Source: Candidatus Uhrbacteria bacterium
GTDB taxonomy: Bacteria; Patescibacteriota; Patescibacteriia; UBA9934; GWF2-40-263
Assembly (NCBI GenBank): GCA_016205975.1
Contig: JACQSK010000015.1
Coordinates: 10,624-74,623 of the forward strand
Direction: 5' to 3'
Length of the DNA stretch: 64,000 nucleotides
Below the pieces are notes generated by a model. It was not told where the DNA came from and searched no databases. It saw only the letters and a program-made list of their open reading frames with translations. Shown piece by piece: positions 5,664 to 63,346 of this stretch (its first letter is position 1; each line of letters begins with the position of its first letter). The position numbers were made by a program, and so were the translations under genes.

Positions 5664-7979
5664 ATGCCCTACAACCATCAAGAGATTGAAAAGAAATGGC
5701 AGGATCGCTGGGAAGCGAGCGGGATTTTTCATGCGCATGACGGAGGCGAGAAACAGAAGTTTTACTGTTTGATCGAGTTTCCCTATCCGTCTGGTGCCGG
5801 CCTGCACATCGGGCATCCGCGCAGTTACACGGCGCTCGATGTCGTTGCGCGCAAGAGGCGTCATCAGGGGTATAACGTCTTGTACCCGATCGGTTGGGAT
5901 GCGTTTGGACTCCCGACCGAAAATTACGCGATCAAGCACAAACGCAAGCCGCAGGAGGTGACGCTCGAGAACGTCGCAACGTTCAGGCGCCAGCTCCAGT
6001 CGCTCGGGTTTTCTTTTGACTGGTCACGCGAAGTGAACACGACGGATCCCAGCTATTACAAGTGGACGCAGTGGATGTTCCTTCAGTTTTTCAAGGCCGG
6101 ACTTGCGTACAAGTCCAAACAGCCGATCAACTGGTGCCTGTCGTGCAAGATCGGACTCGCGAACGAGGAAGTCGTAAACGGGAAGTGCGAGCGCTGCGGG
6201 GGAGAGACGGAGAAGCGCGACAAGGAGCAGTGGATGATCGCGATTACGAAGTATGCGGAGCGACTCCTTGAAGATCTCGACGGGGTTGACTATCTCGAGA
6301 AGATCAAAACGCAGCAGCGCAACTGGATTGGAAAGAGCGAAGGCGCGGAGATTGATTTTGTGCTCAATGTCCCAGGGCAAGAATCAGGCAAACAGAAGGT
6401 GACCGTCTTTACCACGCGCGCGGACACTATTTTTGGCGCGACGTTCTTGGTGATCTCGCCGGAGGTCGCCAAGCAGTGGATCGATGTCGGTTGGGTGGCG
6501 CCAGCGTCCGTGCGTGAGTATGTGCAGGAGGCGCTCTCTCGCGCCGAGATGGAACGTGCAGCCGAAGGCAAAGAGAAGACAGGCGTGGACACTCAAATCG
6601 TCGCGATCCATCCTGCCAACGGAAAAGCAATCCCCGTGTGGGTCGCCGATTACGTCTTAGGGAGTTACGGGACAGGGGCGATCATGGCTGTCCCTCAGCA
6701 CGACGAGCGTGACCGAGCGTTTGCCGAGCAGTTCCGTTTACCGATCGCGGACGAGCCGCTTGCGGCTGTTGATGAAGTCGTGGAGAAAGTCGGTGGAAAA
6801 AAAACCGTGAAGTACAAACTCCGCGACTGGGTGTTTTCGCGACAGCGCTACTGGGGTGAACCGATCCCGCTTGTGTGGTGTGAGAAACATCAGTGGGTCG
6901 CGGTACCCGATGAGCAACTTCCTGTTGTCCTGCCAGAGGTCGAGAAGTACGAACCGACCGATACGGGAGAGTCACCGCTTGCCGCGATGACCGACTGGGT
7001 CAACACGACCTGTCCGACGTGTGGCGGGCCAGCCCGTCGAGAGACGGACACGATGCCTAACTGGGCTGGTTCGAGTTGGTACTTTTTGCGCTACATCGAT
7101 GCACACAACGATCAGGCGTTCGCGTCGCGGGACAAGCTCAAGTATTGGATGCCGGTGGATCTCTACAACGGCGGCAATGAGCACACGACACTTCACCTGC
7201 TGTACTCCCGATTCTGGAACAAGTTTTTATTCGACCAAGGCCACGTCCCAACCAGTGAGCCGTATGCGCGCCGCCACAGCCACGGACTCGTGCTTGCAAG
7301 CGACGGGATCAAGATGAGCAAGTCCAAAGGAAACGGTGTGGATCCAGATGAGATCATCACCCAGTATGGCGCCGACGCCCTGCGCATGTATATCCTTTTC
7401 ATGGGTCCGTTTGAGGAGCCGGTGCCGTGGAGTTTGAACGGGCTTATCGGCGTGCGCCGATTTTTGGATAAGGTTGAGCGGTATGTACAAGCATGGGTCC
7501 CATCGGACCATGATGGCCTATCTGGCGCAGGTCTCTTAGAGCGCAGTCTTAAGAAAATCTCCGACGACATCGAAAGTTTTAAGTTCAACACAGCCGTGTC
7601 CGCCTTCATGTCGCTCTTCAATGCGATCGCCGTGAGTCACATCACGCGCGAGCAGCTCAAAAAGATTCTCGTCGTGCTTGGACCGTTCGCTCCGCACCTC
7701 GCCAACGAGTGCTGGGAGAAAATAGGCGAGGGCGGACTCGTCGAGGAACAGGCCTGGCCAGAGTTCGACGCGCGCCTTTTGGTTCAAGACGAAATCGAAA
7801 TAGCGGTGCAGGTGAACGGCAAAGCGCGCGCAACGATTCAAATCTCACCCAACGCTGACGAAGCCGCGGCCAAACAACTCGCGCTCGCACAAGAGAAAGT
7901 CCAGAAGCACCTGGAAGGCAGGGAGATCGTGCAGATCATCTACGTGCCAGGTCGGATTTTGAACATCGTCATCAAGTGA
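5664..7979 (+). CDS. leuS: Leucyl-tRNA synthetase (compact, 771 aa)
   Basis: HIGH-type motif (HIGHPRSY) and KMSKS motif. Overall class I LeuRS architecture. Confidence 0.92.
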   Translation: MPYNHQEIEKKWQDRWEASGIFHAHDGGEKQKFYCLIEFPYPSGAGLHIGHPRSYTALDVVARKRRHQGYNVLYPIGWDAFGLPTENYAIKHKRKPQEVTLENVATFRRQLQSLGFSFDWSREVNTTDPSYYKWTQWMFLQFFKAGLAYKSKQPINWCLSCKIGLANEEVVNGKCERCGGETEKRDKEQWMIAITKYAERLLEDLDGVDYLEKIKTQQRNWIGKSEGAEIDFVLNVPGQESGKQKVTVFTTRADTIFGATFLVISPEVAKQWIDVGWVAPASVREYVQEALSRAEMERAAEGKEKTGVDTQIVAIHPANGKAIPVWVADYVLGSYGTGAIMAVPQHDERDRAFAEQFRLPIADEPLAAVDEVVEKVGGKKTVKYKLRDWVFSRQRYWGEPIPLVWCEKHQWVAVPDEQLPVVLPEVEKYEPTDTGESPLAAMTDWVNTTCPTCGGPARRETDTMPNWAGSSWYFLRYIDAHNDQAFASRDKLKYWMPVDLYNGGNEHTTLHLLYSRFWNKFLFDQGHVPTSEPYARRHSHGLVLASDGIKMSKSKGNGVDPDEIITQYGADALRMYILFMGPFEEPVPWSLNGLIGVRRFLDKVERYVQAWVPSDHDGLSGAGLLERSLKKISDDIESFKFNTAVSAFMSLFNAIAVSHITREQLKKILVVLGPFAPHLANECWEKIGEGGLVEEQAWPEFDARLLVQDEIEIAVQVNGKARATIQISPNADEAAAKQLALAQEKVQKHLEGREIVQIIYVPGRILNIVIK

Positions 7980-24160: not shown

Positions 24161-26254
24161 ATGCCACGAGAATATCCGCTTGCCGCCACAAGGAACTTTG
24201 GAATCTTCGCGCATATCGACGCGGGGAAGACGACCGTGTCTGAGCGCATTCTTTTTTACACGGGAAAAAAGCACAAGATCGGCGAGGTACACGAAGGCGC
24301 CGCCACCATGGACTGGATGGAACAGGAGCGCGAGCGCGGCATCACCATCACCGCGGCGGCGACGACCTGCTTTTGGAAAGACCATCGCTTGAACCTGATC
24401 GATACGCCTGGGCACATTGACTTTACCGTTGAGGTGAAGCGCTCCATGCGCGTGCTGGATGGCGGCGTGGCTGTGTTCGACGGCGTCGCGGGCGTGGAAC
24501 CGCAGTCGGAAACCAACTGGCGCTACGCGGACGACTTCAAGGTCCCGCGCATTGCCTTTGTGAACAAGCTCGACCGCACGGGCGCAGATTTTTATAAGGA
24601 CCTCGACTCCATCCACCGCCGACTGACCAAAAATGCGCATCCGATCCAGCTTCCCATAGGCACAGAAGCAAACTTTGCCGGCGTGATTGACTTGCTGCAC
24701 ATGAAGGCGCACATCTACAAAGATGATTTGGGGAAAGACGTGGAGGTCGGGGAGATTCCCGCCGAGTACCTGGACCGCGCCAAGGAATATCGCGCCAAGC
24801 TCGTGGAGGCCGTTGCCGAGAACGACGAGGCGCTCATGAACAAGTATGTGGGTGGCGAGGAGATCAGCATTGAAGAGATGAAGCCGGTGATCCGCAAGGC
24901 AACCATTGCCAACACATTCGTGCCGGTCATGTGCGGTTCGGCTTTGAAGAACAAAGGCGTGCAGCTCTTGCTCGATGCCGTCGTGGACTATCTGCCCAAT
25001 CCGCTGGAGGTGCCTCCTGTGATCGGACATGATCCAGACGACATGGAGAAAGAACTCGTGCGCCATGCCTCTGACGAAGAGCCGTTTTCGGCGCTCGCCT
25101 TCAAGATCGCGGCAGACCCGTTCGTAGGTAAGCTCGCGTTCTTTCGCGTGTACTCCGGCATGGTCAAGGCGGGTTCGTATATTTTGAACTCCTCCACGGG
25201 AAACAAGGAACGCGTCGGCCGCATCGTGCGCCTGCACGCCAACACGCGCGAGGAAGTGGGAGAGGTCTATGCCGGGGAGATCGCCGCCATGGTGGGCTTG
25301 AAGGAAACCTTCACCGGTCACACGCTGTGCGATCCAGATCACCCAATCGTGCTGGAGGCGATCAGCTTTCCCGAGCCGGTTATTTCCATTGCGATTGAAC
25401 CCAAGACCAAAGCCGACCAGGAAAAGATGGCCATCGCCCTGCAGAAGTTGTCTGAGGAAGATCCGACGTTCCGCGTGCGGACGGATGAGGAGACCAACCA
25501 GGTCATCATCTCGGGCATGGGCGAGCTGCACTTGGATATTATCGTCGATCGCATGAAGCGCGAGTTTTCGGTCGAGTGCAACGTCGGCCAGCCGCAGGTC
25601 AGCTACCGTGAGACCGTGAAAGGAAGCGCGGAAGGGGAAGGCAAGTACATCCGTCAGACCGGCGGGCGAGGACAGTATGGCCACTGTTTGGTGCGTATTG
25701 AAAAGCTGCCGCCTGGTTCCGGCGTCCAGTTTGAAGAGGAGGTCAAGGGCGGCACGATTCCTCGCGAGTACTTCAACCCGATCGAGAAAGGCATTCGCGA
25801 GGCGGCTGATCGCGGGGTCATGGCCGGGTATCCTCTGCTGGATTTGAAAGTGACGCTCACCGACGGGTCCTACCACGAGGTTGACTCCTCAGAAGCGGCC
25901 TTCAAGATCGCCGGGTCCATGGCGTTCCAGGACGCGGCAAAGAAAGCCGGCGTGGATCTCTTGGAGCCGATGATGAAAGCGGAAGTGTCCACGCCAGAGG
26001 ACTTCATGGGATCGGTCGTGGGAGATTTGAATGCCAAGCGCGGACAGATTCAAGAGATGTCGGACCGCAGCGGCGCCAAGATCATCACCGCGTTCGTGCC
26101 ACTGGCTGAGATGTTCGGCTATGCGACGAGCTTGCGCTCGATGACGCAGGGCCGTGCCAGCTATTCGATGGAGTTTGATCATTACGATGTGGTGCCTGGG
26201 AACGTCGCGAAAGAGATCGTTGAGAAACGCGGAAGCGGACCCACGCGAGCGTAA
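24161..26254 (+). CDS. fusA: Elongation factor G
   Basis: [10 protein letters not shown]1 motif, DTPGHIDF motif, 697 aa. Confidence 0.95.
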
Positions 26255-26261
26255 AATACAA

Positions 26262-26285
26262 AACAGAGCTTCGGCTCTGTTTTTG
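26262..26285 (+). terminator. Intrinsic terminator immediately after fusA
   Basis: AACAGAGC-TTCG-GCTCTGTT hairpin followed by TTTT, starting 8 nt after the stop. Confidence 0.6.
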
Positions 26286-26308
26286 GTTGTGCTAAAATCT
26301 ACCCGTCT

Positions 26309-27340
26309 ATGAAAACTGTTCCGAAAAGCGTCCTTGGCGCCTACGCGATTGGGGCCGTCCAGTCGATCACGCAGGTGACGGCAGGGCTGGTCCACGAGAC
26401 GTTCGCGGTCAAGACCGATCAGGGACGCTACATCATCCAAAAACTCCATCCAGTGCTCGCGAGCAAAGCGATCGGAGAGGACTTCTTCGCCGTGACCGAG
26501 TTTTTGCGATCGCAGAAATTCTTGTCGCCTGTGTGCGTCCGCACAAAAAAGGGAGAGGTGCTTTCCGTGGACCAGACAGACGTCTGGCGGATGCAGACGC
26601 TGTTGCCTGGACGGACGATTCACGTAATCGAGAGTCTTATCATGGCTCGAGAGGCTGGGCAGATCTATGCCAGGTTCCACAAAGTCATGGACAAGATGGA
26701 CTATCGGTTTAAGTCAAAGAAGATTTTGCACGAGACGGAGAAGGTGTACGAGGCACTAGGGAAGGCGACAAAGGGGGCAGAGGGCGCAAAGGGAGCTGAG
26801 GTCGCACAGGAGGTTGCGTTCATCCGTCGGAATCTGCCGGAGTTTTTCCTACCTGCGGATCTCCCGCTGCGCGTCATCCATGGTGATCCAAAGATTTCCA
26901 ATATTTTGTTTGACCGCCACGGCAGGGCCAAGGCCATTATTGATCTTGATACCTGCAATCGTCGTCCGCTCCTTGTAGAACTTGGGGACGCGTTCCGTTC
27001 GTGGTGCGGTGGGCGAGAGGACGATCCGAGCAATACGTTCTCGCTTTCACGATTCCGCGCTGCGTGGAAGGGCTATGAGGCTGGCGCACAGGGATTTCTG
27101 ACCCGACGCGAGCGTCAGCTCGTGCCCCGCGCGATCGGTACGATTACGCTTGAGCTCGCTGCACGCTTCCTTACCGATTACTTTACCGACAACTACTTCG
27201 GTTGGGATGCCTCTCGTTATCCGTCTCGAGCTTCTCATAATCTCGCACGAGCCCGCGGCCAAATCGCAGAGTTTAAGGATTATCAAAAGAAGCTTCCGCA
27301 GATCAAGAAGATCGTGGAAGTACAGCCCACGGTAAGATGA
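26309..27340 (+). CDS. Phosphotransferase-family (APH/choline-kinase-like) small-molecule or protein kinase
   Basis: Brenner motif HGDPKISNILF and IDLDTCNRRP (DFG-equivalent) in a 343-aa protein. Confidence 0.7.
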   Translation: MKTVPKSVLGAYAIGAVQSITQVTAGLVHETFAVKTDQGRYIIQKLHPVLASKAIGEDFFAVTEFLRSQKFLSPVCVRTKKGEVLSVDQTDVWRMQTLLPGRTIHVIESLIMAREAGQIYARFHKVMDKMDYRFKSKKILHETEKVYEALGKATKGAEGAKGAEVAQEVAFIRRNLPEFFLPADLPLRVIHGDPKISNILFDRHGRAKAIIDLDTCNRRPLLVELGDAFRSWCGGREDDPSNTFSLSRFRAAWKGYEAGAQGFLTRRERQLVPRAIGTITLELAARFLTDYFTDNYFGWDASRYPSRASHNLARARGQIAEFKDYQKKLPQIKKIVEVQPTVR

Positions 27341-27362
27341 ATATCTACACGTGCGGTTAATG

Positions 27363-27391
27363 TTGACGGTAGGTGAAAGATATCGTATGAT
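27363..27391 (+). promoter_or_regulatory. Sigma70-like promoter (TTGACG-17-TATGAT) for TA module 2 and the downstream genes
   Basis: Hexamers and spacing seen directly. A palindromic ATGATAA...TTAATCAT candidate operator lies between -10 and the ATG. Confidence 0.4.
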
Positions 27392-27418
27392 AATTTCATA
27401 CTTAATCATCACTACCCT

Positions 27419-27640
27419 ATGTCCACCATCTCCGTGCCGCTTACAGGACCTCTCGAGCAGTTTATCGATGACATGATTCGTCGGGGGGCTGCGCCTAATA
27501 AAGCCGAAGTTGTCCGACAGGCGCTTGTTCGTTTTGCAGAGGATCAGGCGGTTGAGGCGGTTCTTCGTTCTGAACAAGAAGCGCGAGATGGAAAAGTTTT
27601 GCGCGGCGATTTACGTGACCTCATAAAACAGGTGACGTAG
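27419..27640 (+). CDS. Ribbon-helix-helix (ParD/CopG-like) type II antitoxin
   Basis: Small RHH-like protein sitting 4 nt upstream of a RelE-family toxin. Confidence 0.65.
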   Translation: MSTISVPLTGPLEQFIDDMIRRGAAPNKAEVVRQALVRFAEDQAVEAVLRSEQEARDGKVLRGDLRDLIKQVT

Positions 27641-27644
27641 ACTT

Positions 27645-27908
27645 ATGGACGTTTCCTACACGCCGTCCTTTATTCGCATGTTGAAATCGCTCCCAGACGT
27701 ACTGATTGATGAAGCGTTAGAGAAAATAGCATTGTTTCGAGATCCGACGAACCACAAACAACTGAAAGTTCACAAGCTCAGTGGTCGCTTGAAAGGTCGT
27801 TACAGTTTTTCCGTGAACTACAAAATTCGAATCGTTTTTAATTATCTCCCTACAGATCCTAAACAAGCACGACTCGACGCGATAGGTGATCATCGTGTTT
27901 ATGATTAG
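27645..27908 (+). CDS. RelE/YafQ-family toxin (paralog 2)
   Basis: HKLSGRLKGRYSFSVNYKIRIVF...AIGDHRVYD. Confidence 0.75.
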   Translation: MDVSYTPSFIRMLKSLPDVLIDEALEKIALFRDPTNHKQLKVHKLSGRLKGRYSFSVNYKIRIVFNYLPTDPKQARLDAIGDHRVYD

Positions 27909-27940
27909 GATGAGTCTCCAAACACAACTCTGCAAATGCG

Positions 27941-29749
27941 GTGCGATGTGATATGAGCATCTTCTCTCGCGGTACAGATCATCGTCTTTATCTATTCTGC
28001 ACTCTGTTGGTGCTGATTTTTTTGTTGGGCATAGTGATCGGTGGTTCAACGCAAGAAAAGGGAGCCTCTCAAACCGAGCTGGTAAGTGGTCCGGTTTTTT
28101 CGTATGGTTACGCCGCCGCGTCGTTTTATGAGAGAGCCAACGGGACGGCAGAGGCGATCGGGAGAACGAGAGCGCACTCGGCGATTGTGGCACATCATCT
28201 TCTCGTCGCAGACAAGATCGCGCAAGTGTTTGCTGCGCTGGGAGACGGGAAGGAGAAGACGGTCGTAATTCTTTCGCCGAATCATTTTTTTGCTGGACGT
28301 TCTGCCCTGCAGACGACGACAGGATCCTGGACAACGCCGTTTGGGGAGGTGGAGGTTGATCGTGAGAGTGTCGGCGCGCTCCTGGCGGCCGTGCCGGAGC
28401 TGTCCCTCGAGCCTGGGACGTTCAAAGAGGAACACGGCGTGGCTTCGCTCACGCCATTTGTGAAAACGTGGTTTCCCGAATCTAAGCTCGTGCCGCTTGT
28501 GATTCATGACAAGGCAACCGATGAAGAAGTCGCGGCGCTCGCTCGAGCGATTGAAGACGAACTTCCCGACGCTCTCGTGATTGCCTCGATCGACATGTCG
28601 CATTATCTTCCCGAGCACATTCAAGAGTATCACGATGCGGTGACGATGCGATCGATCGCGCAGGGCGCGGCGGACTTCGATCTCGAGATCGATGCCAATG
28701 ATGTGTTGCAGACACTGTTTGAAGTGAATCGTCTGCGCGGGGACCAGCAGTGGGTACAGACGCATCACGGAAGCTCGCTCGCGATGGAGGCAACGGACGA
28801 CTGGCGAGAGAATACCAGTCACATCCTTGGATATTTTATGGATGGCGAACCCGTGCCGGATCCGTTCGTGAGTTTGCAGTTTGTCGGCGACGTCATGCTC
28901 GATCGCGGCGTTCGTATCAAGATGGAAGAACACGGAGCGGCTTATCCATGGGAGAACGTCCAGCGTTTCCTGCAAGGATCGCATCTGCGCATTGCCAATC
29001 TTGAAGGGACGGTGAGTGAGAAGGAGATCCCCATGACCTACGAGTCGCCGTTCACCTTCACCTTTGCGCCGGAGTTCATAGAGGCGATGAAGCCGTTCAT
29101 CGACGCGGTGAGTCTTGCAAATAATCACTCAGACGACTTTGGCGCAGAAGGTGAACAGGAGACGCGGGATCGCCTCGCCATCGATCTCGGGATCGATTGG
29201 TTCGGAGGCTCCTCACGTTCTGATGATATTTACCGATACGACCTCTGTGACCAATCGGGGTGCTCTCTTGGGATCAGTCTGATCGGCTTCAATCAGTTCG
29301 GATTCCCGATTCCCGACCTGACCCCCATTATTGAGGCTGAGGATCAGGCTGGGCGGTTTGTCATCGTCGTGCCGCACTGGGGCGAGGAATATGTCACGGA
29401 GCCACAGGAGAGCCAGCGCGAGCTGGCGACGGCGATGATCGCGGCTGGCGCGGACTTCATCGTCGGCGCGCACCCCCACGTCGTCCAGGGGATCGAAGTC
29501 ATTGACAACGTCCCTGTCGTTTACTCGCTCGGGAACTTTGTCTTCGATCAAGGCTTTGATGAGACCGCGCGTGGCCTGACGCTTGGTGTGATTCTGGACG
29601 ATAGAAGTGCTACACTTTACCTGTCACCGATCTCGACCCTGGACGGACAGCCAACGCCCATGTCAGACGAGGAAGCCGCACAGCTGCTTCTTGATCGAAA
29701 CATTTCAGCAAACTCTCTAACCATTTTTTATGATGAACCTTCATCCTGA
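27941..29749 (+). CDS. Membrane-anchored fusion protein: MEMO1-family domain (res ~60-300) + CapA/PGA_cap metallophosphatase-like domain (res ~305-602)
   Basis: N-terminal signal-anchor TM helix. MEMO1 landmarks: AIVAHHLL, ILSPNHF, EEHGVASLTPF, PLVIHD, IASIDMSHY. CapA landmarks: FVGDVMLDRG, ANLEG, SLANNHSDDFG, VVPHWGEEY, GADFIVGAHPHVVQG, YSLGNFVFDQ. Confidence 0.8.
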   Translation: MRCDMSIFSRGTDHRLYLFCTLLVLIFLLGIVIGGSTQEKGASQTELVSGPVFSYGYAAASFYERANGTAEAIGRTRAHSAIVAHHLLVADKIAQVFAALGDGKEKTVVILSPNHFFAGRSALQTTTGSWTTPFGEVEVDRESVGALLAAVPELSLEPGTFKEEHGVASLTPFVKTWFPESKLVPLVIHDKATDEEVAALARAIEDELPDALVIASIDMSHYLPEHIQEYHDAVTMRSIAQGAADFDLEIDANDVLQTLFEVNRLRGDQQWVQTHHGSSLAMEATDDWRENTSHILGYFMDGEPVPDPFVSLQFVGDVMLDRGVRIKMEEHGAAYPWENVQRFLQGSHLRIANLEGTVSEKEIPMTYESPFTFTFAPEFIEAMKPFIDAVSLANNHSDDFGAEGEQETRDRLAIDLGIDWFGGSSRSDDIYRYDLCDQSGCSLGISLIGFNQFGFPIPDLTPIIEAEDQAGRFVIVVPHWGEEYVTEPQESQRELATAMIAAGADFIVGAHPHVVQGIEVIDNVPVVYSLGNFVFDQGFDETARGLTLGVILDDRSATLYLSPISTLDGQPTPMSDEEAAQLLLDRNISANSLTIFYDEPSS

Positions 29750-31622
29750 GGACAATGAGTCTCGATCTGTGCGACCATGGCTTCTCTATTTGATCGGCGG
29801 AGCTCTTATCGTCGTCGCGTTTGCGACGGGCGTTTTTTTCTCTGATGTGATGGAGAGGCGTGCTGGCGATGTGTACCCGATTGTCGACGAAGAAGCCCTC
29901 GAGGAGGAGGGAGCTCCAGGATTCACTCAGGACGAGGAAGGAGAACCCGTCAAGTACACCGCCACCGGGACGCTCACGATCGATTGGATCGCTCCTGACG
30001 AGCAGCCGAGTTATCCGGACGATGGCGTGTTCGATCGAGCGATGTGCTACGACGTGTACGATGGAGAGATGGGCAATAGCTGTGCCGAAGACCCCGACGG
30101 AGGGCCTCGTTGGTCCTACAAACTTGGAACCGTGGAGGGCGGCGCCTATGACGGACGAGATGTGGTCATGACAAGCGTGCCGATGTCCGGCATGGGAGTT
30201 TATTACGAGACGTTCTATCTTCTCTATGATCCTGCGAGAGAACAGGCGCCGGTGATTATTGATTCCCAGACACGAGGGGAAGGGTGGACTCTTGGCGACG
30301 GGAACGCGATCACCGCTACGGAGCTGATCGGCGAGACTCGTCTTGCAAAACTTTCAGGCTATGTGATCGACACCGAAGCGCTGATTCCCGAGCTTGCGAT
30401 CGACAGGGCGCTGGTGGAACCACCACCCGGGAACGAATTTGCTTTTGTCGGCTCTTGGAGGCGTTTGTATTCTGACGAGGCGATTTCGCTCACAGGGGCA
30501 ACCGCGTCGACGACGCTTTCAGATGGGAGGACTTTGTATCTCTGGGAGCCGAAAGTGGACGCCGATGGAATGATCCTGGAAGGTCAGACAGGGGTCGGTA
30601 AGAACTTGTTTTACCTGGTCGATGAAGATGGTCGGGTGCTGTTCTATGATCTCATCGTTCCGTTTTTTGCTAACGAGGTCGATCAGGAAGGATATACAAA
30701 CCAGGCCATAGGCATTCCCAACGTGGAGTGGAAAGATGGATCGACCAACGACGCAACGTATCTGAAAGGGGACGTGGGTGGATGCGGGTTCACGACCGTG
30801 ACGCATGTCATCTCTCCTGCGGTTGTCACGTCTCTCGATTTGCAGTATGCCGGCGTAGGTGTCATGCCAGGAAGGGGAACGGAATACCCCGTGTACGAGC
30901 CCGAGAGCTACGAGAACGCGTATTACGAAGACGCGTTCAACGCCGTGACCTTTGGGGGCGAGGGCACAGAGCCCAAGACGTACGACGATTACTCTCATCC
31001 CTATTTTTACTTCCAGGATTCTTTTGGCCGATGGATCGAGTTCATGAGCAACGAGCTGATCCCACCGGTGGAATGTGGCAAGCCGGTGGTCTATCTCTAT
31101 CCTGAGCAGGAAACGGACCTGGAGGTCTTCGTGCATCCGCGCGGCGGGTTCTCCTCTACCGAGCCTGAGTACGGCGATGGGTGGGACGTGACGGCCTATC
31201 CCGACGGCCACCTTGTGAACCGAGCGGACGGCATCGGCTATCCGTACCTGTTCTGGGAAGGTCGTGGTGGACTGTATGCGCCGCCGAGTTCGTATTGGGT
31301 CATGGCTCGGTCGGATGTTGAATCATTCTTGAGAGCCACGCTCACAAAAATGAATCTGAGCGGAAACGAAACGGACGACTTCATCGAGTTCTGGCTGCCG
31401 CGCATGCAAGAGGCGTCGTACTACAAGATCGGTTTCCACGACACGCGGGTGATGGATGCACTTGCTCCACTCAGCTTCTCGGTCGCACCTGATCACGTCT
31501 TCCGCATCCTGATGGATTACTCCGAGCTTCAAACTCCCGAGCCGTCCAAGCCACCGGCACGTCTGCCTCGCGCCAACCGCGAAGGGTTCGATGTGCTTGA
31601 ATGGGGCGGCGTGCTTCGCTAG
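29730..31622 (+). CDS. Hypothetical exported/membrane-anchored protein (630 aa) translationally coupled to the MEMO1-CapA gene
   Basis: N-terminal TM anchor and an acidic, aromatic-rich extracytoplasmic body. 20-nt overlap with the upstream gene. No family recognised. Confidence 0.6.
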   Translation: MMNLHPEDNESRSVRPWLLYLIGGALIVVAFATGVFFSDVMERRAGDVYPIVDEEALEEEGAPGFTQDEEGEPVKYTATGTLTIDWIAPDEQPSYPDDGVFDRAMCYDVYDGEMGNSCAEDPDGGPRWSYKLGTVEGGAYDGRDVVMTSVPMSGMGVYYETFYLLYDPAREQAPVIIDSQTRGEGWTLGDGNAITATELIGETRLAKLSGYVIDTEALIPELAIDRALVEPPPGNEFAFVGSWRRLYSDEAISLTGATASTTLSDGRTLYLWEPKVDADGMILEGQTGVGKNLFYLVDEDGRVLFYDLIVPFFANEVDQEGYTNQAIGIPNVEWKDGSTNDATYLKGDVGGCGFTTVTHVISPAVVTSLDLQYAGVGVMPGRGTEYPVYEPESYENAYYEDAFNAVTFGGEGTEPKTYDDYSHPYFYFQDSFGRWIEFMSNELIPPVECGKPVVYLYPEQETDLEVFVHPRGGFSSTEPEYGDGWDVTAYPDGHLVNRADGIGYPYLFWEGRGGLYAPPSSYWVMARSDVESFLRATLTKMNLSGNETDDFIEFWLPRMQEASYYKIGFHDTRVMDALAPLSFSVAPDHVFRILMDYSELQTPEPSKPPARLPRANREGFDVLEWGGVLR

Positions 31623-31626
31623 ACAA

Positions 31627-31668
31627 ACAAAAAACACTCGGGTCAATGACTCGGGTGTTTTTTATGGA
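31627..31668 (+). terminator. Intrinsic terminator, which is also copy 1 of a 30-nt direct repeat: AAAAAACACTCGGGTCAATGACTCGGGTGTTTTTT
   Basis: 13-bp stem (with G.U pairs) plus U-run, 5 nt after the stop of the 630-aa gene. Near-identical copy at 32317-32355. Confidence 0.6.
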
Positions 31669-31725
31669 GCATTTGACCACTCGTCTTGAGGATGATAGAG
31701 TAACAAAAATTGTTACAGTTTATCT

Positions 31726-31944
31726 ATGCGCAACATCGTCAACATTTCCCTACCAGGCAGTCTTACAAAAGAAGTCGAACGTGGAGTCAAAGAATTCCAT
31801 TTTGCTTCCAAGAGTGAATTTTTTCGGCATCTGGTCCGAGAGTGGCTCACAGGACACTTGGTTTTGGACTTGGCTCAGAGTCGTCGTGAGTACGCCCAGG
31901 GGAAAGCCAAAGTTTTGTCGAACGTAAAAGATCTTTGGAAGTAG
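31726..31944 (+). CDS. Ribbon-helix-helix (CopG-like) antitoxin
   Basis: Small RHH protein sitting 4 nt upstream of a RelE paralog. Confidence 0.65.
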   Translation: MRNIVNISLPGSLTKEVERGVKEFHFASKSEFFRHLVREWLTGHLVLDLAQSRREYAQGKAKVLSNVKDLWK

Positions 31945-31948
31945 TGTT

Positions 31949-32209
31949 ATGGCGGAAGTTCTCTACACGCCGCATTTCAAGCGTGACGCAAAACGCTTGC
32001 CGGTTTCTCTGCGCAAACTTATTGAGGATCGGCTCAAGCGTTTCAAAACAGATCCGTTCGATCCCTTACTCAAGACTCACAAGTTAGACGGGAAGCTGCG
32101 CGGACACTGGTCGTTTTCCATCGACCACAAGATTCGTGCGATCTTTAGCATCGAGGACAAATCAGTGTTTGTCCTTCATGCGATCGGTGATCATTCCATC
32201 TACGATTAG
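31949..32209 (+). CDS. RelE/YafQ-family toxin (paralog 3)
   Basis: HKLDGKLRGHWSFSIDHKIRAIF...AIGDHSIYD. Confidence 0.75.
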   Translation: MAEVLYTPHFKRDAKRLPVSLRKLIEDRLKRFKTDPFDPLLKTHKLDGKLRGHWSFSIDHKIRAIFSIEDKSVFVLHAIGDHSIYD

Positions 32210-32316
32210 GAACAAATAACCTATGCCTCCAGAAGACAGAGCTTCCTTCTGTCCATCCTGTGGCTATCCTGCTCATGCTGGTCACGCGCCGAAATGCTCG
32301 GTTGTTGCAGGAAAGA

Positions 32317-32355
32317 AAAAACACTCGGGTCATAGACTCGGGTGCTTTTATATCT
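32317..32355 (+). repeat. Copy 2 of the 30-nt repeat/terminator hairpin (AAAAAACACTCGGGTCATAGACTCGGGTGCTTTTAT)
   Basis: 27 of 30 core positions match copy 1. Together the two copies bracket TA module 3. Confidence 0.6.
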
Positions 32356-32599
32356 GGGGTGGAAGTGCTGTTTCTGGCTTGCCGTGTGACTTATTCCAGT
32401 TCATCTACCTCTTTTCCTGTGCGGTCAATTCCCAGATGATTTCCGTCGAAGGACAAGCCAGGACGGGGTTCTTGCCCACCGAGACCTCAGTGGTATTGGC
32501 GAGACACGATACTGCACAAGAGGACAGGCTACCAGAAGGTCAGGTTTCTGTCAAACGATCGTGGGCTTTTCCCTGTAAAAGCAGCTGATTACTCATTTC

Positions 32600-32627
32600 T
32601 TGACACAGCCCTCTCATCGGCTAAAAT
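32600..32627 (+). promoter_or_regulatory. Sigma70-like promoter (TTGACA-16-TAAAAT) for the 137-aa ORF
   Basis: Consensus hexamers. The ATG lies 10 nt after the -10. Confidence 0.45.
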
Positions 32628-32636
32628 GCGCTCACT

Positions 32637-33050
32637 ATGAGCAACCACTTACAGCGTATCCTCGACCTCGTCCGCCGAACGGGAAACACCATGGTTGTCG
32701 TTGAAAAGGATCAAGATCAGGGATTTGTCGTCATGGACTTGGATCAGTATGAGGTTCTCCTAGATTCTCAGATCATTTCACCCACTCGTCCAGAATCCTC
32801 GACTCCCAACATCTGGGACGTGATGCCGGAGGCTAAGGAACAAGGGGAAACATGGGATCCAGACAGTCTATCCGAGGCAGAGATGGCCGAGTTGGAGAAG
32901 CAATACGAGCAGTTTGCCAAGAGAAACGTGAAGGTGGCGATACAAGAGACACAGACTGGGCCAACACCGGTTGAGCCTCCAAAGCCGCCAGAAACCAAAA
33001 AAGACGAGGACTTTGGCGAAGAAGAGTTCTATCTTGAACCTGTGGACTAA
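32637..33050 (+). CDS. Hypothetical protein with a Phd/YefM-like N-terminus and an acidic C-terminal tail (orphan antitoxin-like)
   Basis: QRILDLVRRTGNTMVVVEKDQDQGFVVMDLDQYEVLL resembles the Phd/YefM fold. No toxin partner is adjacent. Confidence 0.45.
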   Translation: MSNHLQRILDLVRRTGNTMVVVEKDQDQGFVVMDLDQYEVLLDSQIISPTRPESSTPNIWDVMPEAKEQGETWDPDSLSEAEMAELEKQYEQFAKRNVKVAIQETQTGPTPVEPPKPPETKKDEDFGEEEFYLEPVD

Positions 33051-33067
33051 GAGGGGAACCCAGAGAC

Positions 33068-33096
33068 TTGCGCGATTTCAGGCCCTTTGTTATACT
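33068..33096 (+). promoter_or_regulatory. Candidate independent promoter for tuf (TTGCGC-17-TATACT)
   Basis: Hexamers seen 80 nt upstream of the tuf ATG. Confidence 0.4.
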
Positions 33097-33176
33097 TTCG
33101 CACGTCTTCAAAAAAGGAGGCACGGATCAAAAATCATAAATAATTTTGGGTAAAAATTGCCCTTACTTTCAATCGT

Positions 33177-34370
33177 ATGGCTGAAGTCTTTCAGCGCACT
33201 AAGCCGCACGTGAACGTCGGTACCATTGGTCACGTTGACCATGGCAAGACCACGACCACGGCCGCCCTGCTCGCCGTTTTGAACGCGAAGGGCATGACTG
33301 CCCAGAAAAAGGGCGTGGATGATTTGGATAAGGCTCCTGAGTCCAAGGCGCGTGGAATCACGATCGCCACGGCTCACTGTGAGTATGAGTCCGACAAGCG
33401 TCATTATGCGCACGTCGACTGCCCAGGTCACGCCGACTACATTAAGAACATGATCACCGGTGCCGCCCAGATGGACGGAGCCATTTTGGTCGTGTCGGCC
33501 GCTGATGGTCCCATGCCTCAGACTCGTGAGCACATTCTGCTCGCTCGTCAGGTTGGCGTTCCAGCCGTTGTCGTGTTTTTGAACAAAGTCGATCAAGTGG
33601 ATGACCCAGAGCTGATTGATTTGGTTGAGGAAGAAGTCCGCGACCTGTTGAAGAAGTATGAGTTCCCAGGCGATGAAGTGCCCGTGATCCGTGGCTCAGC
33701 GCTCAAGGCGCTTGAGAACCCGACAGACGATGCGGCGACCAAGTGCATCATGGATCTCGTGAACGCCTTGGACACCTACATCCCAGAGCCCGTGCGTCAG
33801 ACCGACAAACCCTTCTTGATGCCAATCGAAGACGTGTTTTCGATCGAGGGTCGAGGAACCGTGGTGACAGGTCGCATCGAGCGCGGCATGGTCAAGATCA
33901 ACGAGGAGCTCCAGATCGTCGGTATGCGTCCAGAGGCCATGAAGACGGTCGTGACCGGTATTGAAATGTTCAACAAGCAGCTTTCTGAAGGGCGCGCTGG
34001 CGACAACGCAGGTTTGCTCTTGCGCGGAACGAAGAAAGAGGAAGTCGAGCGCGGCATGGTTTTGGCCGCTCCTGGTTCCATCACCCCTCACACCGAGTTT
34101 GAGGCCGAGACGTATGCACTCACCAAAGAGGAAGGCGGCCGCCATAAGCCATTCTTCAAAGGCTACAAGCCACAGTTTTACATTCGCACCACGGACGTGA
34201 CGGGCGAGGTGACACTGCCTGAGGGAACAGAGATGGTCATGCCGGGCGATACCGTGAACCTGACCATCAAGCTCATCCAGCCTGTGGCTCTTGAAGAGAA
34301 GATGTCTTTCGCGATCCGCGAAGGAGGTCACACGGTTGGCGCTGGTGTGGTAACAAAGATTATCAATTAA
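33177..34370 (+). CDS. tuf: Elongation factor Tu
   Basis: [21 protein letters not shown] motifs; 397 aa. Confidence 0.96.
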
Positions 34371-59666: not shown

Positions 59667-60086
59667 ATGCAGTTGGTCATAGATAGTTCAGTTTTTGTTG
59701 CGGCGTTTCGTGAGCAGGAAAAAGATTCAGCTGTCTGTTTCCGTCTTCTGACTCAGTTGGAACAGGGAAAGCTGACAGCCATCATTCCTGTGAGTGTGTT
59801 ATTGGAAGTCGTTGCGGCGATCGCGCGTAGAACGTCTGACGTGGAATTAGCAAGACGGGTGGGCGCACGTCTTGTTTCTTTTTCTTCTTTAAGTTTCATT
59901 GACCTCAGTATTTTTCGAACGCTTCAGTATCTCGATCTTACGGCAGAGTTGAAGCTGGCTGGCATGGATGCCATTGTTGTGGGAACAGCAAAAGAGTTCA
60001 ATCTTCCCCTCGTGACACTCGACAAAGAAATTCAACGCCGAGCCTCAGGTACTGTTACATGCGTTTCCGTTCAAGATTTATTCTAA
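59667..60086 (+). CDS. vapC: PIN-domain ribonuclease toxin (VapC-like)
   Basis: N-terminal MQLVIDSSVFVAAF with conserved Asp, an acidic-residue pattern, and a C-terminal LPLVTLD motif. Confidence 0.75.
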   Translation: MQLVIDSSVFVAAFREQEKDSAVCFRLLTQLEQGKLTAIIPVSVLLEVVAAIARRTSDVELARRVGARLVSFSSLSFIDLSIFRTLQYLDLTAELKLAGMDAIVVGTAKEFNLPLVTLDKEIQRRASGTVTCVSVQDLF

Positions 60087-60124
60087 CTCCTTTAACTTGA
60101 GATGGAATCAAGAGTATCTTTTTT

Positions 60125-60715
60125 ATGAAACCATTCCAAACCCTTCTTTTCCTCATCGTGATCGTTCTCATCGGCGGCGTGGCCGTGCTCTATTGGGGTA
60201 CAACCGTTGAGGATGCGACCGTGCCTGTTGAGGTCGTTGAGGAGCCAAGGATTGAACCCAGAGCAGAGGAGAAAGAAAAAATATATGAAGATACGTTTCT
60301 ATCATTTGAGTACCCTCACAATGTAGAGCTTCTATTTGAAAAGCCTATGGGTGGTCGTTCGGATTCTCAGAGTATTAGTTTTCTCGTGTATGATGAAACT
60401 CAAAAAATCTACATTCCCACACATCTTAGATTAAGCTACATGGTATCGCTGGGCGAAAGCGAAGATTCGTCCTTCGAGACGATCGACGATTTATTGAAAA
60501 ACTACGAAGAGTATTCTTTAGAAACCAAAGAATACGCAGTAGATGGTAAGCGTGCGATTCAAATAGTCACTGGTGACATGTCAGGCGAAACTTTTTTTCT
60601 TGTTGTTCAGGCCGATGAACCTGGAGATGCCTATAGATTTAGTGGCTCATATCTGAATGAAACAGTTGATGAGATTTTGGGATTATTCATGGAAACAGCA
60701 AAGTTGAATCAATAA
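60125..60715 (+). CDS. Hypothetical membrane-anchored protein (196 aa), AT-rich gene
   Basis: N-terminal TM anchor and an acidic body. Low-GC codon usage unlike the core genes. Confidence 0.55.
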   Translation: MKPFQTLLFLIVIVLIGGVAVLYWGTTVEDATVPVEVVEEPRIEPRAEEKEKIYEDTFLSFEYPHNVELLFEKPMGGRSDSQSISFLVYDETQKIYIPTHLRLSYMVSLGESEDSSFETIDDLLKNYEEYSLETKEYAVDGKRAIQIVTGDMSGETFFLVVQADEPGDAYRFSGSYLNETVDEILGLFMETAKLNQ

Positions 60716-60728
60716 ATGAAGTGAAGTT

Positions 60729-60776
60729 TTGTGACTACATCATATCCGCGAAACGATTCCGTTTCTGAGATTGGTA
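60729..60776 (+). repeat. attR-like direct repeat = degenerate second copy of the asnS 3' end (would encode ..RETIPFLRLVNRI..)
   Basis: Aligned base by base to 59298-59345. Confidence 0.65.
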
Positions 60777-60812
60777 AACCGGATCAATTCATTGAAAGGG
60801 AAAAAGTGATCT

Positions 60813-61907
60813 ATGCAAAAAATAAACGTTGGGGTCATATTTGGTGGCAGGTCGGCAGAGCATGAAATTTCCTTGCTGTCGGCCTACAACATCATCGCTG
60901 CGATCCCAAAAAAGAAATATAACATCGTCCCGATCGGTGTGCGCAAGGACGGTTCGTATGTGTATTTTTCAAAAGGCGATTTTATCCTCCATTCTGGTGA
61001 TGCAAAAAAAGTTCGTCTAGCAGCTCGTGGTGTTCCTGTGACATTTGAGTTTGGTGAGGAAGGCCGCATTGTTTCACTGAAAGGAGGCGGTACGAAAAAA
61101 AAACTCGACGTTGTTTTTCCCGTTTTGCACGGAACGTATGGCGAAGATGGAACGATGCAGGGACTTCTGAGTCTCGCCAACATTCCGTTTGTTGGTTCAG
61201 GAGTTTTGGGCTCAGCCGTTGGCATGGATAAGGATGTTGCTAAACGGTTGTGGCGTGACGCAGGTTTGCCGATGGCTGACTTTATTGTTTTTCGAAAATC
61301 TGATCTGAGGAAGATTCAGTTTCGTTCGATTGTGCGCAAACTCGGTCTGCCATTTTTTATAAAGCCTGCCGTCGCAGGCTCGTCTGTCGGCGTTCATAAA
61401 GTGACGAGTGCGAAACAGTTTACAGCGGCTCTGCGCGATTCGTTCTCGTACAGTCACAAAGTATTGATTGAACGAATGATTGTCGGTAAAGAAATCGAGT
61501 GCTCTGTTTTAGGTAACGAGCACCCGATTGTCTCTCTTCCAGGTGCGGTGATTCCCACCCACGGTTTTTATTCTTACGAGGCAAAGTATCTTGATGAGGA
61601 TGGCGCGCATTTTGAAATTCCTGCTCCATTGCCAACGACTGTTGTAAAAAAAATTCATCGAATTGTGTTAGAGGCGTTTCAGGTTCTCGAGCTTGAAGGC
61701 ATGGCGCGTGTTGATGGATTTTTGACGCCTAAAGGTGTGTTCATCCTGAACGAAGTGAATACCATCCCAGGTTTTACCAAGATCAGTATGTATCCAAAAC
61801 TGTGGGAGGTGAGTGGTGTGAGTTATTCTGAGCTTATCGATCGACTTCTTCAGCTCGCAATTGCGCGTCATTACAGGGAACATGCCTTGAAAACCGTCCG
61901 ACAATGA
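60813..61907 (+). CDS. ddl: D-alanine--D-alanine ligase (compositionally atypical, ~47% GC)
   Basis: ATP-grasp ligase with the Ddl N-terminus (VGVIFGGRSAEHEISLLSA) and C-terminal motifs. Confidence 0.88.
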   Translation: MQKINVGVIFGGRSAEHEISLLSAYNIIAAIPKKKYNIVPIGVRKDGSYVYFSKGDFILHSGDAKKVRLAARGVPVTFEFGEEGRIVSLKGGGTKKKLDVVFPVLHGTYGEDGTMQGLLSLANIPFVGSGVLGSAVGMDKDVAKRLWRDAGLPMADFIVFRKSDLRKIQFRSIVRKLGLPFFIKPAVAGSSVGVHKVTSAKQFTAALRDSFSYSHKVLIERMIVGKEIECSVLGNEHPIVSLPGAVIPTHGFYSYEAKYLDEDGAHFEIPAPLPTTVVKKIHRIVLEAFQVLELEGMARVDGFLTPKGVFILNEVNTIPGFTKISMYPKLWEVSGVSYSELIDRLLQLAIARHYREHALKTVRQ

Positions 61908-63346
61908 TTTCCAGGTATGATAGACTAATGCTCACTATGACAAGAACATGGATCGATGAAACGACACAAAAAGTAGGCGAGACGGTGGTGCTCAAGGGCT
62001 GGGTGCATCGGCTGCGAAAAATGGGCGATAAGCTCGTATTTATTGACTTGCGCGATGGATCGGGCTTGGCGCAGGTGGTGTTTTATAAGCCAGATTTGGA
62101 CGAGGCAACGTGTACGGCTGTGGATGAATTAAAGCCCGAGTTCGTCATCGAGGTTGAAGGCGTTGTGAATGATCGAGGAGCCAAGCAGGTGAATCCTGAG
62201 ATGCTCACGGGGACGATTGAGATTGGCGCCAAGACGGTCAACATTTTGAATGCGGCGCTCACACCGCCGTTTCCGATCGATCAAGATTCCGCGAACGTCG
62301 CCGAGCACGTGCGCATGAAGTATCGGTACTTGGATTTACGCACGGAGCGCCTCCAGCATCATCTGCGCTTGCGCAGCCGGTGGGTGCAGGCGTGCCGAGA
62401 GTATTTGTTCCAGAATCGTTTCGTTGAAATCGAAACGCCGCTGCTCACCAAAGCCACGCCGGAAGGCTCGCGCGACTTTGTCGTGCCTTCGCGTCTGCAG
62501 CCGGGAAAATTTTTTGCGCTCCCGCAGAGCCCGCAGCAGTACAAGCAGCTCCTCATGTGCTCGGCCTTCGAGCGGTACTTCCAGACCGCGCGCGCCTTGC
62601 GCGATGAAGACCCGCGCGCCGACCGCGGGTTCGAGCACACGCAAGTGGACCTTGAGATGAGTTTTGTCGAGCGCGAGGACGTCATGCAGATGGTTGAGGG
62701 CATGGTGATCTCGGCTGCGGAGAAACTCGGTTTCACGATTCGCGAGAAGCCATTCCCGCGCATCAGCTACAAGGACGCGATGGCGAAGTACGGCGCGGAC
62801 AAGTTTGATATGCGTACGGATGAAGAGAAGGCGGCGGGAGTGTTGGCGTACGCTTGGGTAGTTGACTTTCCATTTTTTGAGCGCGATACGAAGAGCGGCC
62901 GATGGACGTTCACACACAACCCCTTCTCCAATCCTCTGCCGGAGTTCCGCGACGACCTCTTGGCCGGCCGCAACATCGAGAACATCTTGACCTCGCAGTA
63001 CGACCTGGTGTGCAACGGCTATGAGTCAGGCGGCGGCAGTATTCGCGCGCACGAGGCGGAAGTGCTGGAGGCGACGTATCGGGTTATGGGTTACAGCAAG
63101 GATGAGCTTACGGCGTCTGTCGGACACATGCTGGAGGCGTTCCGCTACGGTGCGCCACCGCATGGCGGGATCGCTCTGGGCGTGGAGCGCAACCTCATGA
63201 ACCTCACGGGCGAGTCCGCGCTGCGCGAAGTGGTCGCGTTCCCGATGACGGCCTCAGGCACGACATCGGTGATGGAGGCGCCAACGTCCCTGGACGTCGA
63301 AACGTTGCTGGAACTCTCGATTAAAACCACAGAGAAAAAAAGCTGA
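61904..63346 (+). CDS. aspS: Aspartyl-tRNA synthetase, bacterial-type but lacking the GAD insertion domain (480 aa)
   Basis: QSPQQYKQLLM motif 1, FRDED motif 2, GGGSIR, PPHGGIALGVERNLM motif 3. Alternative start at 61934. Confidence 0.9.
   Translation: MISRYDRLMLTMTRTWIDETTQKVGETVVLKGWVHRLRKMGDKLVFIDLRDGSGLAQVVFYKPDLDEATCTAVDELKPEFVIEVEGVVNDRGAKQVNPEMLTGTIEIGAKTVNILNAALTPPFPIDQDSANVAEHVRMKYRYLDLRTERLQHHLRLRSRWVQACREYLFQNRFVEIETPLLTKATPEGSRDFVVPSRLQPGKFFALPQSPQQYKQLLMCSAFERYFQTARALRDEDPRADRGFEHTQVDLEMSFVEREDVMQMVEGMVISAAEKLGFTIREKPFPRISYKDAMAKYGADKFDMRTDEEKAAGVLAYAWVVDFPFFERDTKSGRWTFTHNPFSNPLPEFRDDLLAGRNIENILTSQYDLVCNGYESGGGSIRAHEAEVLEATYRVMGYSKDELTASVGHMLEAFRYGAPPHGGIALGVERNLMNLTGESALREVVAFPMTASGTTSVMEAPTSLDVETLLELSIKTTEKKS

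Follow-up and report, generated by a model that had tools for sequence, protein, structure and literature searches.

The AmmeMemoRadiSam trio, in which Memo is the B component beside AMMECR1 and a radical SAM protein, is cytoplasmic, and we know of no activity of prokaryotic Memo proteins in bacteria. Bacterial alpha-2-macroglobulin (A2M) gene pairs (e.g., yfhM-pbpC) encode a large anchored surface protein beside an envelope enzyme, a penicillin-binding protein. In the CapA (PGA_cap) family, the CapA/PgsA protein of the Bacillus PgsBCA system comprises an N-terminal membrane anchor followed by a catalytic domain and governs the polymer's D/L content, with deletion of pgsA shifting the D/L ratio of poly-gamma-glutamate (PGA) from 75/25 to 5/95 (PMC6029982). 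Another member, the lasso-peptide C-terminal Trp epimerase MslH (PDB 8gq9), is a soluble cytoplasmic RiPP enzyme encoded in a lasso-peptide cluster. It inverts a peptide C-alpha by metal-dependent acid/base catalysis, the sole chemistry shown for the CapA family. The PgsA-dependent shift fits a stereochemical role for this family. We found no mention in the literature of PGA_cap together with Memo, nor of AmmeMemoRadiSam in Patescibacteria.

The window analyzed here (64,000 nt of contig JACQSK010000015.1 in assembly GCA_016205975.1, Candidatus Uhrbacteria bacterium) encodes a fusion of a Memo and a CapA domain, together with a partner protein, on the plus strand. Both open reading frames described in an earlier sequence-only reading were present, a 602-aa frame at 27941..29749 and a 630-aa frame at 29730..31622, with an overlap of exactly 20 nt (29730-29749). 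The ATG at 27953 ('MSIFS') is the likelier start of the fusion gene than the GTG at 27941, because the database entry of identical sequence (P0001) has 598 residues, and we therefore place the gene at 27953..29749. Each protein carries a single hydrophobic N-terminal segment, in agreement with the membrane anchors that had been proposed for both. In the fusion, hydropathy places this segment at residues 16–34 (602-aa numbering), and no hydropathy window other than the anchor LYLFCTLLVLIFLLGIVIGG exceeds 1.6; the AF2 model has a helix at about residues 8–32 (598-aa form; 27974..28048, plus strand) with basic R and H on its N side. The corresponding segment of the partner spans about residues 17–38 by hydropathy (29778..29843, plus strand) and lies in a modeled helix at 17–46. 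Both proteins are acidic (D+E/K+R: 92/37 in the fusion, 105/41 in the partner), and hydropathy combined with analogy suggests an outward-facing topology for the two.

Upstream of the pair, consensus scanning of the plus strand gave a promoter-like site at 27363-27391 and no terminator-like site from the RelE-like cassette up to the start of the fusion. The pair had been described as transcriptionally downstream of this toxin-antitoxin cassette with no terminator between; the absence of a terminator-like site was borne out, but the link to the cassette is incidental and varies among relatives. Two related loci share the fusA-APH-pair-tuf context, one of which lacks the cassette (L001) and one of which has an AbiEii-like pair instead (L008). 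A functional link to the RelE-type cassette was rejected on this basis, and the toxin-antitoxin cassettes on either side of the pair represent variable insertions. An anti-phage defence system, suggested by the cassettes that flank the pair, was likewise rejected, with no PADLOC match for either protein.

Both domains of the fusion were recovered above threshold by profile searches and again by fold, which confirms the proposal that MEMO1 and CapA domains occur in one polypeptide. The Memo-like domain (LigB superfamily; about residues 45–300; 28085..28852, plus strand) matched PF01875 at 93 bits (cut-off 27) over only part of the profile (positions 47–211 of 269), and fold comparison shows a complete Memo/LigB fold. 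The CapA/PGA_cap domain (MslH-like; about residues 305–598; 28865..29749, plus strand) has a calcineurin-like fold, with a PGA_cap member as the nearest solved structure. In the AF2 model the fusion forms a compact single body with a pTM of 0.89, and because this value was obtained for a two-domain chain, the model suggests a fixed arrangement of the Memo and CapA domains.

To analyze the predicted active sites, residues of the fusion were compared to those of the described proteins. The catalytic and metal residues of MslH (D11, E44, N87, H88, D91, H259, and H295; PMC10406935) correspond to D313, E351, N391, H392, D395, H475, and H509 of the fusion, all of which are invariant in 62 homologs. 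There are several differences from MslH: the CapA domain of the fusion is membrane-anchored and fused to Memo, MslH H261 aligns with a Gly (with E479 nearby), and the neighbourhood in the window contains no lasso-peptide or other RiPP genes. At the level of sequence the fusion does not qualify as an MslH orthologue, because the MslH equivalog model NF038314 scored it at only 41.9 bits (cut-off 700). In the Memo half, counterparts of MEMO1 H49, H81, D189, and H192 were found at H81, H111, D214, and H217, and these are conserved. D247, which is invariant, is a candidate and probable replacement of MEMO1 C244, although this is a by-eye reading in a region where the hhalign alignment is unreliable.

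The 630-aa partner (29730..31622, plus strand) had been described as having no recognisable family. Searches of Pfam, NCBIfam, PADLOC, and the PDB (sequences and folds) matched it to no curated family; nonetheless, it is a member of a very large uncharacterised family with 7,555 representatives at 50% identity. Behind the anchor, AF2 secondary structure indicates a variable, beta-rich N-terminal ectodomain (about residues 70–440; 29937..31049, plus strand), followed by a conserved C-terminal domain (about residues 441–630; 31050..31622, plus strand) with the motifs KPV[IV]YLYP, GW, LFWEG, and R-GF-VEWGG. Among relatives, profile E-values of the N-terminal region range from 1e-5 to 1e-60 and those of the C-terminal domain from 1e-58 to 1e-105, which indicates that the N-terminal region diverges fast. 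In the C-terminal domain, 29 columns are invariant across 16 diverse sequences; the domain matches at least 6,855 clusters at 90% identity, whereas Pfam gave nothing for it at E<=1. It also occurs alone as Clostridial lipoproteins such as the 210-aa P0389, fused to dockerin, and in dockerin/SH3_3 proteins. By analogy this domain is extracellular, because elsewhere it is found behind lipoprotein signal peptides and beside dockerin or SH3_3 domains.

Gene neighbourhoods were compared to determine if the pair is conserved. Of 32 fusion loci, 17 independent ones have the partner gene directly beside the fusion gene; both gene orders occur, in at least five unrelated genomic contexts, with tight spacings of -20, -8, -20, +1, +46, and +19 nt. 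The link was also recovered reciprocally: in a search begun from the partner side, a distant partner homolog (P0290) adjoins a 606-aa fusion gene. Fusion and partner thus form a conserved module in Patescibacteria, and their adjacency, occurrence in both orders, and reciprocal recovery support a functional pair. Complete or near-complete genomes with the pair include OZ246408.1, FLOH01000012, and the HY631 assembly. No further neighbour is conserved across contexts. An APH kinase, a Phd-like protein, and tuf recur in the closest relatives only. The partner was not found near the CapA-only genes of other Patescibacteria (L033-L087).

Taken with these results, our preferred though tentative reading, which we hold at somewhat less than even odds, is that the fusion, together with the co-encoded surface protein, modifies a peptide-type envelope substrate as an outward-facing metalloenzyme that needs no ATP. 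A single N-terminal helix would anchor two metal-dependent domains outside the membrane, packed as a rigid body. The CapA domain would epimerise a peptide-type substrate on the outer face of the membrane, or otherwise process it without ATP; we propose this because the MslH residues listed above are all conserved here and because peptide C-alpha inversion is the only chemistry demonstrated in the family, even though epimerase chemistry may not transfer from MslH to the fusion. The Memo domain may add another His/Asp metal site, at which the same substrate would be bound or oxidised. Many hosts probably live anaerobically, and this speaks against O2-dependent chemistry. The anchored partner might hold or present the substrate through its conserved C-terminal domain, or might itself be the substrate. 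While domain identity, active-site residue conservation, membrane anchors, and gene linkage are direct observations, we infer the outward topology, the chemistry, the substrate, and a physical interaction between fusion and partner. In favour of this reading, fusions of other clades also adjoin large anchored surface proteins. These neighbours, however, are of four unrelated kinds among which no homology was detected, and loose clustering of envelope genes would account for them as well as a dedicated enzyme-substrate relation. The C-terminal domain functions without a Memo-CapA neighbour in Clostridia and at one further locus (L092), which also counts against this reading. The pair had been suggested to form a cell-surface polymer or modification system; with no linked ligase or polymerase the polymer part was not upheld, and modification is compatible with the data.

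A related explanation, which we regard as unlikely, is that the fusion post-translationally modifies, and is dedicated to maturing, whichever surface protein is encoded beside it, rather than a wall polymer. In 28 of the 32 loci the gene beside the fusion encodes a large exported or anchored protein, and four unrelated kinds occur: besides the partner family, other fusion clades adjoin A2M-like, DUF3160, or Gmad2/GerMN surface proteins. Neighbour type roughly tracks fusion clade. DUF3160 has one mention in the literature, as a 'secreted enzyme'. Start/stop overlap of the two genes would also fit such a relation in that it suggests stoichiometric co-expression. In having a large anchored surface protein encoded beside an envelope enzyme the loci may resemble the bacterial A2M pairs, and in some clades an A2M-like gene precedes the Memo-CapA gene; here, however, the enzyme is Memo-CapA rather than a penicillin-binding protein, and the partner in the window is not A2M-like by hhalign. 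Homology of the partner to any of the other three neighbour kinds was rejected (hhalign probabilities no higher than 2.2%), and the lack of a motif common to the four kinds (0.2–2%) weakens the maturation explanation. Moreover, judging from its conservation and model, the best-conserved part of the partner looks like a folded functional domain rather than a substrate tail, and in Clostridia this domain exists without the enzyme.

Based on its calcineurin-like fold, the CapA domain could instead be a surface phosphoesterase with which an auxotrophic epibiont acquires nucleotides, phosphate, or lipid head groups by scavenging, with Memo and the partner as accessories, but we consider this improbable. 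Canonical metallophosphoesterases build a dinuclear site from five motifs. Equivalents of motifs III, IV, and V (canonically GNH[DE], H, and GHxH) are retained as NNH, H475, and HPH, whereas the canonical motifs I and II (DxH and GDxxDR) are missing and reduced to GD-M and NLE in the fusion family. PF00149 gave no match to the fusion protein of the window, although a few homologs do match it. The closest solved relative, MslH, binds a single metal and acts as an epimerase rather than a phosphatase (PMC10406935), and a scavenging role leaves both the Memo fusion and the partner unexplained.

Participation in synthesis of a PGA-type capsule, the classical role of CapA, is very unlikely; in its favour are the strong PF09587 match (183 bits, cut-off 27, E-value 9.2e-54) and the name 'poly-gamma-glutamate synthesis protein' that some sources give to homologs. 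CapA is not the polymerase, and PGA is made without it (PMC6029982). The fusion shares PF09587 and the order of anchor and catalytic domain with PgsA, but it has no linked PgsB or PgsC, carries a Memo domain that PgsA lacks, and is paired with another conserved protein. As the sequence-only reading had noted, the classical partners of CapA and MEMO1 are absent: CapB (the amide ligase type), CapC, AMMECR1, and radical SAM genes were found neither among the large ORFs of the window nor, in gene tables, within +/-8 kb of the fusion in five related loci (L001, L003, L004, L006, and L088). Because these genes are absent nearby, neither PGA synthesis nor the name "AmmeMemoRadiSam system protein B" fits the module.

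The latter name, which NCBI uses for many homologs, would make the fusion the B component of an AmmeMemoRadiSam system, and we give this even less credence. The TIGR04336 match is well above threshold (103 bits against 26) but is limited to profile positions 54–208 of 270, and none of the neighbourhoods examined contains an AMMECR1 or radical-SAM gene. Unlike MEMO1 and the prokaryotic Memo proteins of the known cytoplasmic trio, the Memo domain here lies behind a membrane anchor, presumably extracytoplasmic, and is fused to an extracytoplasmic-type CapA domain. The idea that separate genes were joined by an assembly error or a frameshift in this assembly alone is refuted by more than 370 homologs, drawn from independent assemblies and sources, with the same Memo and CapA architecture in one ORF each, by single-ORF fusions in 30 or more species-level genomes, and by the one compact body of the model, the sole 'split' (L068) having its halves parted by one in-frame TGA.

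The two database names were probably carried over from single-domain matches, and both probably mislead pathway reconstruction in Patescibacterial genomes. The module is widespread in Patescibacteria and unites two enzyme families of poorly understood prokaryotic function, which it links to a family of about 7,500 clusters (50% identity) that has neither a Pfam model nor a relative with a solved fold. It thus offers an experimental handle on three uncharacterised families together. Patescibacteria are ultra-small and live attached to other cells, and the surface proteins that decide host contact are largely uncharacterised. A broader reading, to which we assign a low probability, is that Memo-CapA proteins represent a class of enzymes, not recognised before, that modify proteins or peptides outside the cytoplasm and without ATP, with each clade maturing its own surface protein. 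Such chemistry might, for example, combine L-to-D epimerisation with metal-dependent oxidation, and candidate substrates in the respective clades would be the 'KPVIYLYP...EWGG' family, the A2M-like proteins, and the DUF3160 proteins. If true, this would mean a dedicated extracellular pathway of post-translational modification at the surface through which Patescibacteria contact their hosts.

The fusion ORF (27941..29749; 602 aa from a GTG start) and the partner ORF (29730..31622; 630 aa from an ATG start) lie on the same strand and, as the sequence-only reading had proposed, overlap by 20 nt. The database protein P0001, 100% identical to the fusion, is 598 aa long and an ATG occurs at 27953 ('MSIFS'), therefore we took 27953 as the likely start of the fusion. 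The partner is identical to NCBI HY631_02825 (P0121) from a Candidatus Uhrbacteria MAG. Each protein contains exactly one strongly hydrophobic segment, at the N-terminus, and both are strongly acidic (D+E/K+R: fusion 92/37, partner 105/41), in agreement with the earlier description of the partner as acidic and membrane-anchored.

Based on Pfam, the two domains previously read from sequence, Memo (2e-26) and PGA_cap (9.2e-54), are present in one chain, both well over curated cut-offs, and the NCBIfam model TIGR04336 ('AmmeMemoRadiSam protein B') also matches (1.3e-29). The AlphaFold2 model was very confident (pLDDT 93.4, pTM 0.89; 62 homologs used). In the 62-sequence alignment, the invariant CapA-domain residues are D313, E351, N390, N391, H392, D395, H475, E479, H507, and H509. 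HMMER aligned invariant residues of this domain with D11, E44, N87, H88, D91, H259, and H295 of the lasso-peptide epimerase MslH, which are Ca(II) ligands and two His/Asp dyads required for epimerisation according to mutagenesis (PMC10406935). Memo-domain residues H81, H111, D214, and H217 aligned with MEMO1 H49, H81, D189, and H192. The alignment around MEMO1 C244 was not reliable, and invariant D247, at a helix start, is a candidate replacement for this cysteine. HMM, fold, and the residues aligned are concordant: the fusion belongs to the PGA_cap and Memo families at the domain level. It is not an MslH orthologue (NCBIfam: 42 bits vs. a cut-off of 700). Behind a membrane anchor, the fusion therefore carries two complete metal-enzyme domains whose active-site residues are conserved.

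A word-indexed search recovered 374 fusion homologs. Nearly all of the best 120 contain both Pfam domains (one shorter cluster, P0039, 447 aa, has PGA_cap only), and most of these 120 are from Uhrbacteria or other Patescibacteria of many sources. About 32 loci with full-length fusions were found when one genome per species was scanned, some with Moraniibacteriota or Parcubacteria labels, and fusions of ~30% identity exist in Caldisericum, Atribacteria, and Bacillota MAGs. The sole split case (L068) has its Memo and CapA halves parted by one in-frame TGA (6763-6765), possibly owing to a sequencing error, pseudogene formation, or UGA recoding; its contig is AT-rich and labelled 'uncultured Gammaproteobacteria'. 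Several loci with Gammaproteobacteria or Planctomycetota labels carry Patescibacteria-type genes, and these labels look like binning or labelling errors.

The fusion and the partner form a conserved, tightly spaced gene pair. Gene tables showed a Pfam-less protein (598-644 aa) directly downstream of four fusion homologs (39-56% identity) in four different genomic contexts; the neighbour in L003 shares 38% identity with the window partner. HMMs built for this analysis placed the partner beside the fusion at 17 non-redundant loci; the partner gene follows the fusion gene in Uhrbacteria and precedes it in Moraniibacteriota, Parcubacteria, and others. In the reverse search, a 606-aa Memo+PGA_cap gene was found 19 nt downstream of the distant partner representative P0290. 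Spacing was -20, -8, -20, +1, +46, and +19 nt.

The partner had been described as lacking a recognisable family. It has no match in Pfam, NCBIfam, PADLOC, or PDB sequences, but when 1.84 billion representatives were searched with a profile, 7,555 proteins matched at E<=1e-3 and 4,742 at E<=1e-30, which places it in an uncharacterised family of very large size. Its conserved core spans the C-terminal ~190 residues (motifs KPV[IV]YLYP, GW, LFWEG, and R-GF-VEWGG). This C-terminal domain is also found on its own, in Clostridial proteins of ~210 aa that have lipoprotein signal peptides, or paired with dockerin/SH3_3, Big_2, or ankyrin repeats. No Memo-CapA gene was found near the Clostridial copies (L093-L095), which, together with the lipoprotein and dockerin/SH3_3 forms, supports the view that the domain is extracellular and functions autonomously. 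The stand-alone lipoproteins are abundant (P0389, P0406, P0396; P0389 in 211 blocks of the collection), and their genes adjoin a 4HBT thioesterase gene and lie near feoAB.

The larger ORFs of the window are housekeeping genes. The module is flanked by fusA (24161-26254) and tuf (33177-34370), with an APH/homoserine-kinase-like phosphotransferase gene directly upstream (26309-27340; PF01636, 9.6e-23), an arrangement common to the window and its closest relatives, L001 and L008. Because the kinase is conserved there only in these relatives, it probably does not belong to the module. fusA-tuf adjacency is a classical feature of the str operon; in this Uhrbacteria lineage (24161-34370 from fusA through tuf) the two genes are parted by ~7 kb containing the kinase, the pair, a small acidic protein, and the toxin-antitoxin (TA) cassettes. 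In L040, a fusion gene directly follows rpoB-rpoC. Two RelE/YoeB-like TA cassettes lie upstream (27419-27908) and downstream (31726-32209) of the pair, with toxins 41% and antitoxins ~20% identical. A promoter-like site is present at 27363-27391 and no terminator-like site was found between the upstream cassette and the fusion, as earlier noted; read-through is plausible. The cassette itself is not a stable neighbour: the intergenic slot between the kinase and fusion genes is empty in L001 and in L008 (1173-2022) holds a different, 64-aa + 220-aa pair that looks AbiEii-like. TA cassettes are therefore variable insertions, and the slot looks like a TA insertion hot spot. A 137-aa protein (32637-33050), weakly Phd/YefM-like at its N-terminus and ending in a long acidic tail, is kept immediately upstream of tuf in both L001 (15741-16181) and L008 (7416-7874); no cognate toxin gene follows it, and the region's best sigma-70-like match (11/12) lies just upstream (32600-32627). 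GC content falls to 0.44 at 60001-62000 (~0.56 overall), around a D-Ala-D-Ala ligase gene (60813-61907) and the ORFs preceding it.

The sole demonstrated PGA_cap-family chemistry is Ca(II)-dependent acid/base epimerisation of a peptide C-alpha (PMC10406935), and PgsA sets PGA D-glutamate content in vivo (PMC6029982). These reactions proceed without ATP or a diffusible cofactor, and therefore suit an extracytoplasmic enzyme. We tentatively favour an enzyme at the cell surface that acts on a peptide-type envelope substrate by epimerisation or some other processing, with less confidence in the specific chemistry. A dedicated role in maturing the neighbouring protein appears unlikely. A surface phosphoesterase for scavenging is a little more doubtful again. 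PGA capsule synthesis, reflected in the JGI name of some fusions ('poly-gamma-glutamate synthesis protein'), is very improbable, since the B and C genes of PgsBCA have no linked counterpart. AmmeMemoRadiSam membership, reflected in the NCBI name of P0002, P0003, P0022, and others ('AmmeMemoRadiSam system protein B'), is still more remote, as the neighbourhoods examined contain neither AMMECR1 nor a radical-SAM gene; the absence of all these partners had been recorded from the sequence. Each name derives from one domain, and gene neighbourhoods support neither. An assembly artefact, such as two genes joined by a frameshift, is practically negligible given the two-domain homologs, L068 alone being split.

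No paper was found on the Memo-CapA architecture or the partner family; new here is a fusion of known domains that is accompanied by an undescribed conserved partner, and its function is inferred. Other fusions have an alpha-2-macroglobulin-like protein directly upstream (1,700-1,900 aa; Big_5, MG2, A2M_BRD, A2M; five loci), or a DUF3160 (~850 aa; four loci) or Gmad2+Germane (two loci) neighbour, none detectably related to the partner, and neighbour type largely tracks fusion clade in a rough NJ tree. What the clades have in common is that the fusion enzyme is accompanied by a large protein, either surface-exposed or anchored. In the favoured reading, in which the CapA/Memo enzyme would epimerise or otherwise process a peptide-type envelope substrate at the surface, the Memo domain would contribute another metal site, used in binding or oxidation. 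The substrate would either be held by the C-terminal domain of the partner or be the partner itself.
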